A stretch of DNA of 34,474 nt from an uncultured Thermococci archaeon. GTDB lineage: Archaea; Methanobacteriota_B; Thermococci; Thermococcales; Thermococcaceae. Position 1 is the first letter of the stretch; each line of letters begins with the position of its first letter. Below are positions 33,338 through 34,474 of this stretch, piece after piece. The notes beneath the pieces were generated by a model. That model was given only the letters and a program-made list of their open reading frames with translations, was not told where the DNA came from and searched no databases. The stretch covers positions 1-34,474 of the forward strand of contig CAZAPD010000057.1 of the NCBI GenBank assembly GCA_964487115.1, given 5' to 3'. A program made the position numbers and the translations under genes.

Positions 33338-34474
33338 GAGGGCAGAAACCTCGGGCTGTTAGGAGCGGCAGGCTAAACGGGTCGGTTTCCCTTCCCGCTT
33401 ACACCCCCGCCCTATTAAACGGGTCTTCTTCCCGAGCCCTCGTCCCAGGCAAAGGACCGGTCGCCCGACCCCCTGCGCCTGGGAGTGGCCGCCTATTTTC
33501 GGGGACCGCTTCGGCCTTAGATGCTTTCAGGCCTTATCGGACACGGCGTAGCTGCCCGGCAACCCCCTGTAGGAGGACCGGTAGACCAGAGGCCGCGGCA
33601 CCCTGTTCCTCTCGTACTGAGGGCACCTTCCCCTCAGGCGGCCAACACCTCCGGTAGATAGCATCCGACCTGTCTCACGACGGTCTAAACCCAGCTCACG
33701 TTCCCCTTTAATGGGTGAACACCCCCACCCTTGGCCCCTGCTGCAGGACCAGGATGGGAAGAGCCGACAGCGAGGTAGCAAGCCTCGGGGTCGATATGGG
33801 CTCTCGCCCGAGACGACTCTGTTATCCCCAGGGTAGCTTTTCTGTCATCCCTGGCCCCCACCGGGGAGGCACAGGGGTTCGCTAGGCCACGCTTTCGCGG
33901 CTGGACCCGCCTCTGTTACGGGTCCAGTCAGGCCGGCTTTTGCCCTTGCACTCTACGGGGGATTTCTGACCCCCCTGAGCCGACCTTTGGGCGCCCTCGA
34001 TCCATTGTCGAGGGCGTACCGCCCCAGCCAAGCGGCCCACCAACCGCTGTCCCCCCGGGTGGAGGTAAGCCGAGCAGCCAAGGAAGGGCGGTGTTACATG
34101 GGCGGCTCCACCCGAGCCGGAGCCCGGGCTTCGCAGCCTCCCGCCTACGCTATGCATCCTTGGCTGCTCGGCAACGGCAGGCTGCCGCAGAGCTCCACGG
34201 GGTCTTCTCTTCCCGCGGGGGGTCCCCGGCCTATGCGCCGGGACGGCGGTTTCGCCGGGCGGGTCCCTGGGACAGCGGGGAGGTCGTTAAGCCATTCATG
34301 CAGGCCGGCATTTAACCGGCAAGGGATTACGCTACCTCTGCCCAGACGCCGGTGTGCCCGGGTAACATCCTCATCCTTTAGTCGGATGACCGACGTCATT
34401 AAGACGGTCAGAGTTACCGCCGCCGTTTACCGGGGCTTAACCGGGTTGAAACCCGGCTTCACACACCGGCACTG
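33338..34474 (-). rRNA. rrl: 23S rRNA, 3' portion (domains IV-VI; 3' end approximate; continues beyond the window)
   Basis: High GC; minus strand has GGATAACAG, GAGCTGGGTTTAGACCGTCGTGAGACAGG, sarcin-ricin loop CAGTACGAGAGGAAC and H69 GGTAACTCTGACC. The stretch at about 33292-33330 probably forms the 3' strand of the processing stem. Confidence 0.97.
34338..34399 (-). ncRNA. 62-nt ORF-less bulge-helix-bulge intron in 23S rRNA (E. coli site 1927)
   Basis: Interrupts the conserved CTTA|AGGTAGC; central helix GUCU/GGGC, bulges UA^A and AG^A, flanking helices ACC/GGU and GACGUCGGU/ACCGGCGUC. Confidence 0.88.

Follow-up and report, generated by a model that had tools for sequence, protein, structure and literature searches.

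A BHB intron, probably spliced and carrying half of a C/D guide predicted for C1920, on a likely mis-assembled Aenigmatarchaeota piece of 23S rRNA

At its right end, the window analysed here (34,474 nt, the entire contig C57 of a Thermococci draft genome of 132 contigs, 96% complete) includes the last 1136 nt, at the 3' end, of an archaeal 23S rRNA gene on the minus strand, interrupted directly after position A1927 by 62 nt. We read this insert as a BHB intron that is likely spliced, that lies on a likely mis-assembled piece of Aenigmatarchaeota rRNA, and that carries one half of a C/D guide whose predicted effect is 2'-O-methylation at C1920. Judged from sequence comparisons, this combined reading is one that we moderately favour, and its parts differ in how firmly they can be held.

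An intron at 23S position 1927

The insert occupies 34338..34399 of the minus strand and is free of ORFs. Alignment with E. coli rrlB places A1927 at 34400 and A1928 at 34337 on either side of it, and exon helix 69 (E. coli 1906–1924) at 34403..34421 on the same strand. The insert is also present in DNA from sequencing run X1, possibly made from the source sample itself, where a 572-nt contig is identical to the window over 34304–34474 and two further identical contigs reach down to 34052. The original prediction had located the 62 extra nucleotides properly, and its cut positions agree with the alignment, in that taking the insert out restores the conserved 23S exon.

The predicted BHB is assembled from two strands, both on the minus strand of the window. 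The 5' strand (34399..34408) contributes outer helix 34408–34406, central helix 34405–34402 and bulge 34401–34399, with the predicted 5' cut between 34400 and 34399. The 3' strand (34334..34343) contributes central helix 34343–34340, bulge 34339–34337 and outer helix 34336–34334, with the predicted 3' cut between 34338 and 34337; both cuts are placed from the sequence. Inside lies a 9-bp stem, whose 5' arm (34389..34397) overlaps the guide described below, and whose 3' arm (34345..34353) would cover that guide once the BHB has formed. Every pair that had been proposed can form, that is 3/3 in the outer helix and 4/4 in the central helix (two of them G-U), together with the inner stem, the U-U pair and both 3-nt bulges; when the insert was shuffled 200,000 times, central helix and inner stem appeared together in 3 cases. 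However, to say that the RNA folds this way was too strong, as the minimum-energy fold of the naked RNA is not the BHB and the pair probability of the central helix is at most 0.02. The support for the predicted BHB is comparative: among the matches listed, all 4+3 pairs are kept in 58 of the 63 distinct inserts at 1927. The CAUCC/GGAUG hairpin of the original prediction can likewise pair, but it is an alternative register on the second GGAUG copy, giving a K-loop, that is conserved in relatives.

Two other types of intron were considered. A group I intron is rejected on the size of 62 nt, the position at 1927 and the lack of an Rfam match for the insert; introns of that type have a catalytic core several hundred nt long and are spliced after U and after G, at 23S positions that include 1923 and 1931 (PMC6125680). 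A homing-endonuclease (LAGLIDADG) intron is rejected because 62 nt leave no space for an ORF, which bears out the earlier statement that no such nuclease is encoded inside. Viral contigs gave no match.

Contigs from 4 of 22 listed sequencing runs were compared with positions 33790–34474; run X16, with a 63-nt skip and a short side, was not counted as evidence. A contig from X2 skips exactly the 62 nt, with 0 differences over 209 exon nt, and one from the RNA run X3 shows the same exact skip with 2 differences. X2 is labelled metatranscriptomic and flagged ‘probably DNA’, and both X2 and X3 look rich in rRNA, with a summed depth of ~100,000 at conserved bins versus <350 in X1. The joined form anticipated for an ORF-less BHB intron at this site is thus seen in two runs of RNA type, although an intron-less allele would look the same in contigs, and the joined contigs may represent such an allele. 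Genes for EndA and RtcB are found in 5/5 relatives examined, and these enzymes likely splice the 62-nt intron. All told, we have little doubt that the insert is a real, spliced intron.

It is also one of many. Pattern scans gave 50 genome loci and at least 120 metagenome loci, with 30 more from 371 genomes of the Aenigmatarchaeota phylum. From 184 pattern matches, 48 were removed for want of rRNA context, 45 sites proved empty, and in 9 the second exon was out of view, leaving at least 82 inserts of 27–594 nt, at least 63 of them distinct; the context filter also discarded genuine cases, for example L038 and L206. The central helix of the BHB tracks the exon across exon variants, one further variant included. 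Among the matches listed, the named carriers are mostly Aenigmatarchaeota, in which mini-introns are common, joined by Micrarchaeota, Bathyarchaeota, ANME-1 and Desulfurococcales. The last of these have introns of 574–585 nt as well as 40-nt minis at 1927, and one long intron (L032) encodes a LAGLIDADG protein (Pfam LAGLIDADG_1, E 8e-12). The suggestion that 1927 hosts LAGLIDADG introns in crenarchaea holds for Desulfurococcales in this way; for 1927 introns in Aeropyrum and Pyrobaculum, the examples originally named, our literature search found no record. Inserts just 3' of helix 69 are in addition seen in three Patescibacteria-type 23S genes (L052, L087 and L101).

On the basis of this survey, a BHB intron without an ORF is nothing unusual at 1927 and belongs to a known kind. 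It shares the BHB junction, a conserved rRNA site and predicted EndA/RtcB splicing with the archaeal BHB rRNA introns of Thermoproteales and Desulfurococcales, some of which are ORF-less hairpin introns too (PMC4496867, PMC6125680). It differs from them in host lineage, which here is Aenigmatarchaeota, and in its interior, where a conserved guide and K-loop take the place of a plain hairpin or nuclease ORF.

The source of the 23S gene piece

The exon sequence around the intron is not of the host-genus type. Diagnostic sites, defined as those that tell 28 rows of the host genus apart from 14 of Aenigmatarchaeota type, divide the minus-strand gene into a foreign Aenigmatarchaeota-type piece that reaches the contig end (33959..34474), a switch zone (33906..33958) and a host-type 3' portion (33339..33905). 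From the contig end to 33959 the window is donor-type at 31/38 diagnostic sites, and from 33958 onward it is host-type at 35/36; in keeping with this division, its identity to 29 same-genus loci is mostly 76–87% over exon bases 1–400 and 99–100% over bases 500–700. In a tree of 39 rows and 460 columns, with which a second tree of 108 rows agrees, the 515-nt piece and metagenome contig L114 make up one group (support 100/99). This group stands next to genomes G092 and G093 (90/85, not starred), and the starred 11-row clade around the piece (97/96) includes named Aenigmatarchaeota. The AU test rejects a grouping of the piece with the host genus (p=0.0056). The 16S of the genome is 98–99% identical to that of two same-genus genomes, and of the 29 same-genus loci the 25 that span position 1927 are all empty there. 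The host genus would be Thermococcus, judged from its 23S and from the DNA ligase, whose best solved-structure matches include 3RR5, 4EQ5 and 2CFM, proteins of Thermococcus and Pyrococcus.

An intron of Thermococcales is thereby rejected, by exon identity, by trees and AU test, by diagnostic sites and by the empty same-genus loci. It is highly probable from these comparisons that the insert is not on the host's own gene, and the novelty claimed for Thermococcales falls with it. The caveat attached to that claim, that the segment may belong to another organism, was the right reading, since the piece derives from Aenigmatarchaeota.

How the piece came to be on this contig is best explained by the assembler, which likely joined the rRNA genes of two organisms in a conserved stretch: the piece groups with Aenigmatarchaeota, and the switch falls within conserved sequence close to the end of the contig, where a 36-nt run of the switch zone (33957–33922) is identical in the window, in the host-genus relative G019 and in G092. 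As the switch zone is crossed by none of the contigs listed, the chimera is something that we infer. A real mosaic, with the host gaining at least ~515 nt of 23S from Aenigmatarchaeota, and the intron with it, through recombination or co-conversion, would fit the contiguous assembly and a genome in which no second 23S copy was found, and homing introns do adjoin 1927 in the sister 23S. Against this, such an exchange would have had to bridge ~20% divergence across domains IV–V, the piece stops at the contig edge with the switch inside the 36-nt shared run, the genome is a draft of many contigs, and every same-genus locus spanning the site is empty; we regard it as very improbable. An assembly chimera therefore remains our reading. 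Since a ‘first Thermococcales 23S intron’ is likely to be such a product, the origin of an rRNA feature should be checked wherever it lies at the end of a draft contig.

In two metagenome contigs, L109 and L114, the upstream exon matches the window at 75/75 positions. Both carry a 59-nt sister intron, which differs from that of the window by 6 sites and 3 gaps, none of them in the guide core or boxes. The 23S gene of L114 also has LAGLIDADG introns of 542 and 888 nt at -132 and +142 (545–1090 and 1420–2310); the second is absent from the piece in the window, and opens with ~140 nt of box-like non-coding sequence. In two records titled Freyarchaeota and Pseudomonadota (L040 and L077), Aenigmatarchaeota-type 23S pieces with 1927 introns were seen, and mis-binning of such pieces thus looks common.

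Elsewhere in the window, a gene for the tetraether lipid synthase Tes lies at 2853–4619 (minus strand), scoring above the NCBIfam cut-off, and a cas6 gene at 19233–19967 (minus strand); the scan of 25 window proteins showed no further cas gene. At 30602–31473 (plus strand), what looks to be a single reading frame from ~30602 seems interrupted at ~30710–30790, before a 210-aa ORF at 30841, possibly by a frameshift; it has no family match.

A guide and a K-loop inside the intron

The original prediction missed the conserved payload of the intron, which is a guide with a K-loop. The predicted guide (34387..34394, minus strand) is antisense to 23S positions 1917–1924 (34403..34410, minus strand), with 6 contiguous Watson-Crick pairs followed by U-U and G-C. 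It is followed by box D' (CCGA, 34382..34385), whose GA is invariant in 20/20 aligned introns and which is further supported by covariation, and by box C' (AUGAGG, 34369..34374), both on the minus strand. Two C-G pairs and a tandem G-A join the boxes in a K-loop, as they also do in the sister intron of L109 and L114. G34390 is at position -5 from box D' and stands opposite C1920 (34407), which makes this the predicted methylated base under the N+5 rule that, like the D'/C' K-loop, belongs to archaeal C/D sRNAs (PMC6009581).

For comparison across the family, the payload motif was written as a guide ending GUCA, one base, NNGA, a loop of 6–12 nt and RUGANN, with the box pairs left free. Among the matches listed it is present in 20/39 introns of the window's exon type versus 0/24 of the other exon type, and in shuffles its count has a mean of 0.1 and a maximum of 3. 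The D'1–C'6 pair is Watson-Crick in 17 of these 20 introns (U-A 9, C-G 6, G-C 2, among the matches listed), compared with a permutation mean of 7.6 and 0/20,000 permutations as high; both the shuffle and the permutation figures overstate the case, as the motif was written after seeing the sequences and kin are not independent. At D'2–C'5, again among the matches listed, the 20 introns have U-U 10, U-A 6, C-G 2, U-C 1 and U-G 1, and it is here that both sides of the U-U have changed to C-G in the window, as they have in G287, a further C-G case. When all 160 guide-exon cells are counted, 96% pair with 1917–1924 versus 18–53% when the guide is slid, and position -5 is opposite C1920 in 20/20 aligned introns. 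Covariation of guide and target is not demonstrable, with 0 double changes in the 20 introns, because the exon target is invariant.

The intron is thus C/D-guide-like, with a D'/C' K-loop containing the tandem G-A and a guide with an N+5 target, in a helix that is predicted to be a methylation hotspot (PMC4644070). Yet it is not a canonical C/D sRNA. Its pairing is shorter than usual, guides in archaeal C/D sRNAs being 10–12 nt according to PMC4644070, and it has neither the terminal box C/D (K-turn) nor a second guide. The terminal box pair is not conserved: an upstream box C is present in 1/20 introns (as the first six bases of the window's intron) and a downstream box D in 2/20. A second C/D pair made by circularisation, from the 5' AUGA and the 3' CUGG, was also considered and rejected as a feature of the family, since RUGA occurs there in 2/20 introns (window and sister) and the D-like box is without its A.

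It could be argued that this is an ordinary ORF-less BHB hairpin intron in which guide and boxes are functionless leftovers, with C1920 either methylated by other means or unmethylated. In line with such a view, the motif is lacking or decayed in 19/39 introns of the window's exon type (among the matches listed), the window guide is short with its six contiguous pairs, TlyA-like genes are present in the nearest genomes G092 and G093, and the intron has no Rfam match, short hairpin introns being known from 16S (PMC4496867). Against it, a U-U box pair has become C-G in the window's copy through changes at both positions, the tandem G-A and the -5 spacing are kept, and all differences from the sister intron lie outside guide core and boxes; we consider this explanation unlikely. 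We are quite confident, from the sequence patterns, that guide and K-loop are under selection in the Aenigmatarchaeota-type family of 1927 introns.

For an intron of this kind, a close precedent is in euryarchaeal pre-tRNA-Trp (Pyrococcus sR50 and Haloferax; PMC7994747 and PMC7714728), where a BHB intron likewise holds a guide aimed at its own host RNA. The host here is 23S rRNA, the intron has only the D'/C' half with one guide, and the target is 8 nt upstream of the splice site, overlapping the BHB. In the openly accessible literature, intron-borne methylation guides are described in tRNA introns only and none in rRNA introns (PMC6125680, PMC4496867, PMC7714728, PMC7994747, PMC3326292, PMC12918454); C1920 guides or 1927 introns may be included in the supplements to PMC4644070 and PMC6125680.

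The same module is also found away from position 1927. A strict module pattern was scanned in the 371 phylum genomes, with the reversed pattern as control, and was found in 24/371 versus 1 for the control. Of the 24 strict matches, 14 lie in 1927 introns and 2 in free C/D sRNAs; a tRNA intron accounts for 1 more and 23S introns elsewhere, in genomes with an empty 1927, for 2, which leaves 5 unexplained. That the module occurs in free sRNAs, in a tRNA intron and in 23S introns with an empty 1927 indicates that it is independent of the BHB at 1927. The two free sRNAs (L263 and L264, ~1487–1545, in G135 and G137) are complete C/D sRNAs that use the C1920 guide at box D', and one of them matches snoPyro_CD at E 8e-4, below the family cut-off. 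The tRNA gene (L287:59–185, G227) has anticodon UGU and an intron with C1920 guide and K-loop; it was found by Rfam and missed by ARAGORN.

Inserts at 23S positions other than 1927 were seen in several loci. In L286 (G374:C53:16500–17100), four inserts of 43–49 nt lie within ~150 nt of the site; the one 5–9 nt downstream of 1927 carries the C1920 guide module, and the others have box-like motifs. An 83-nt insert in L285 (G127:C64, ~9180–9260), 814 nt upstream of an empty 1927, has the C1920 guide flanked by boxes, as well as a terminal stem. In L284 (G092:C39), a 151-nt insert without an ORF lies 661 nt 3' of position 1927; its boxes resemble those of C/D sRNAs, and one stretch of it, judged by eye, fits the P-loop. 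A separate 562-nt insert stands at +513. A loose-pattern search for a free C1920 guide in G000, G092, G093, G067 and G103, which are incomplete genomes, returned chance-like matches only. As for the protein partners of a guide, fibrillarin was found in 15/17 guide-bearing genomes (not in G062 and G063), and genes for Nop5 and the L7Ae family in 5/5 relatives examined.

Methylation of C1920 and its order relative to splicing

Cm1920 is a known mark with more than one known maker. In Nanoarchaeum equitans it is guided by the C/D sRNA sR20, reported as confirmed with data cited as not shown (PMC5389701). The module in the intron has the same predicted target, N+5 spacing and D'/C' K-loop as sR20; as compared with sRNAs of that type, it lacks the terminal C/D pair and the second guide, pairs over a shorter length and is carried in an intron. 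In bacteria the same mark is made by protein alone, with no guide RNA, by type I TlyA (Cj0588 of C. jejuni; PMC5778110). G092 and G093, the nearest genomes to the donor, have no 1927 intron and do have a TlyA-like S4+FtsJ methyltransferase gene, scoring below the family cut-off (L291:1189–1860 and L292:1027–1713, respectively). If the donor also carries it, this gene could mean replacement of the guide or redundancy with it. TlyA-like genes are present in 10/371 phylum genomes with 0 overlap with the 24 strict-guide genomes, a pattern whose chance of arising without any exclusion is 0.51; where the site is visible, 1927 is empty in 7/7 TlyA-like genomes and position 1920 is U in 5/7. Exclusivity of TlyA and guide is therefore a lead only.

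That the copy of the intron in the window directs Cm1920 is a prediction to which we give somewhat better than even weight. A single K-loop raises the question of specificity, as archaeal C/D RNPs with one motif were active but methylated non-specifically in vitro (PMC1635284; PMC8413462). The proposed sequence of events is as follows. Once the 5' half of the intron has been transcribed, the guide would fold back over an 8-nt loop onto 1917–1924, L7Ae would bind the D'/C' K-loop, and Nop5-fibrillarin would methylate the base opposite position -5, which is C1920. The 3' arm of the intron would then displace the exon from the guide, allowing the BHB to form from 1919–1927, after which EndA would cut both bulges and RtcB would join the exons and circularise the intron. 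Protein binding, methylation, action in cis and the order of these steps are what we infer.

This order is suggested by the geometry. The target-paired, BHB and helix 69 states are mutually exclusive, since all of them use 1917–1925 and the inner stem has the guide in its 5' arm. In a nascent-prefix model, the probability of pairing between guide and C1920 is 0.7–0.8 at 65–80 °C just after D' (0.1 at 37 °C) and at most 0.1 once the 3' arm is present. Exclusive states and nascent pairing together favour methylation in cis, followed by strand displacement and splicing. In full-length RNA the states come to -20.7 and -22.2 kcal/mol versus a minimum of -37.3, and naked-RNA folding favours neither. 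As a lead, an alternative 7-bp hairpin at 34341..34362 (minus strand) would keep the 3' arm off the guide; it is absent from the minimum-energy fold of the sister intron.

The same geometry could be taken to mean that the module is a splicing or folding chaperone with no part in methylation, its K-loop binding L7Ae and its antisense stretch opening helix 69 for the BHB. The 3' strand of helix 69 (1919–1925) is indeed used by the BHB, which is not the minimum of the naked RNA, and the guide spans 1917–1924. But a chaperone would not explain why the spacing to a known methylation site is always N+5, nor why free C/D sRNAs, a tRNA intron and those 23S introns whose genomes have an empty 1927, where no such BHB is needed, have the module as well, and we think this role quite improbable. 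Alternatively, the excised intron, as a circle or linear molecule and perhaps as a dimer with two K-loops, might methylate C1920 of another pre-23S in trans. The guide in the tRNA-Trp intron was first thought to act in cis and later reported to act in trans (PMC7994747), and two box motifs were needed for specificity in vitro (PMC1635284). In predicted folds of the excised intron, however, the guide pairs with intron sequence, six contiguous pairs are weak for targeting in trans, and pairing of guide and exon is not favoured beyond the nascent prefix; action in trans thus seems to us to have only a slim chance of being the answer. Methylation of the nascent transcript in cis is the mechanism that we prefer.

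In its broadest form, our proposal is that the C/D machine of Aenigmatarchaeota has been reduced to a half-guide with a single K-loop, which, tethered within an rRNA intron, methylates the intersubunit helix 69 in cis and is then shut off by the 3' arm for splicing, in effect a methylate-then-splice checkpoint, and that the job of making Cm1920 falls, depending on the lineage, to a free sRNA, to a tRNA intron, to one of several rRNA introns or perhaps to an enzyme of TlyA type. We put this forward as a tentative idea, which could well be wrong in part. If it is true, an rRNA intron of a type usually read as a selfish remnant would be working for its host, and a one-motif archaeal guide would be site-specific in nature, as opposed to the two motifs needed in vitro. 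Tethering of the guide to its target could explain how one motif suffices for specificity.
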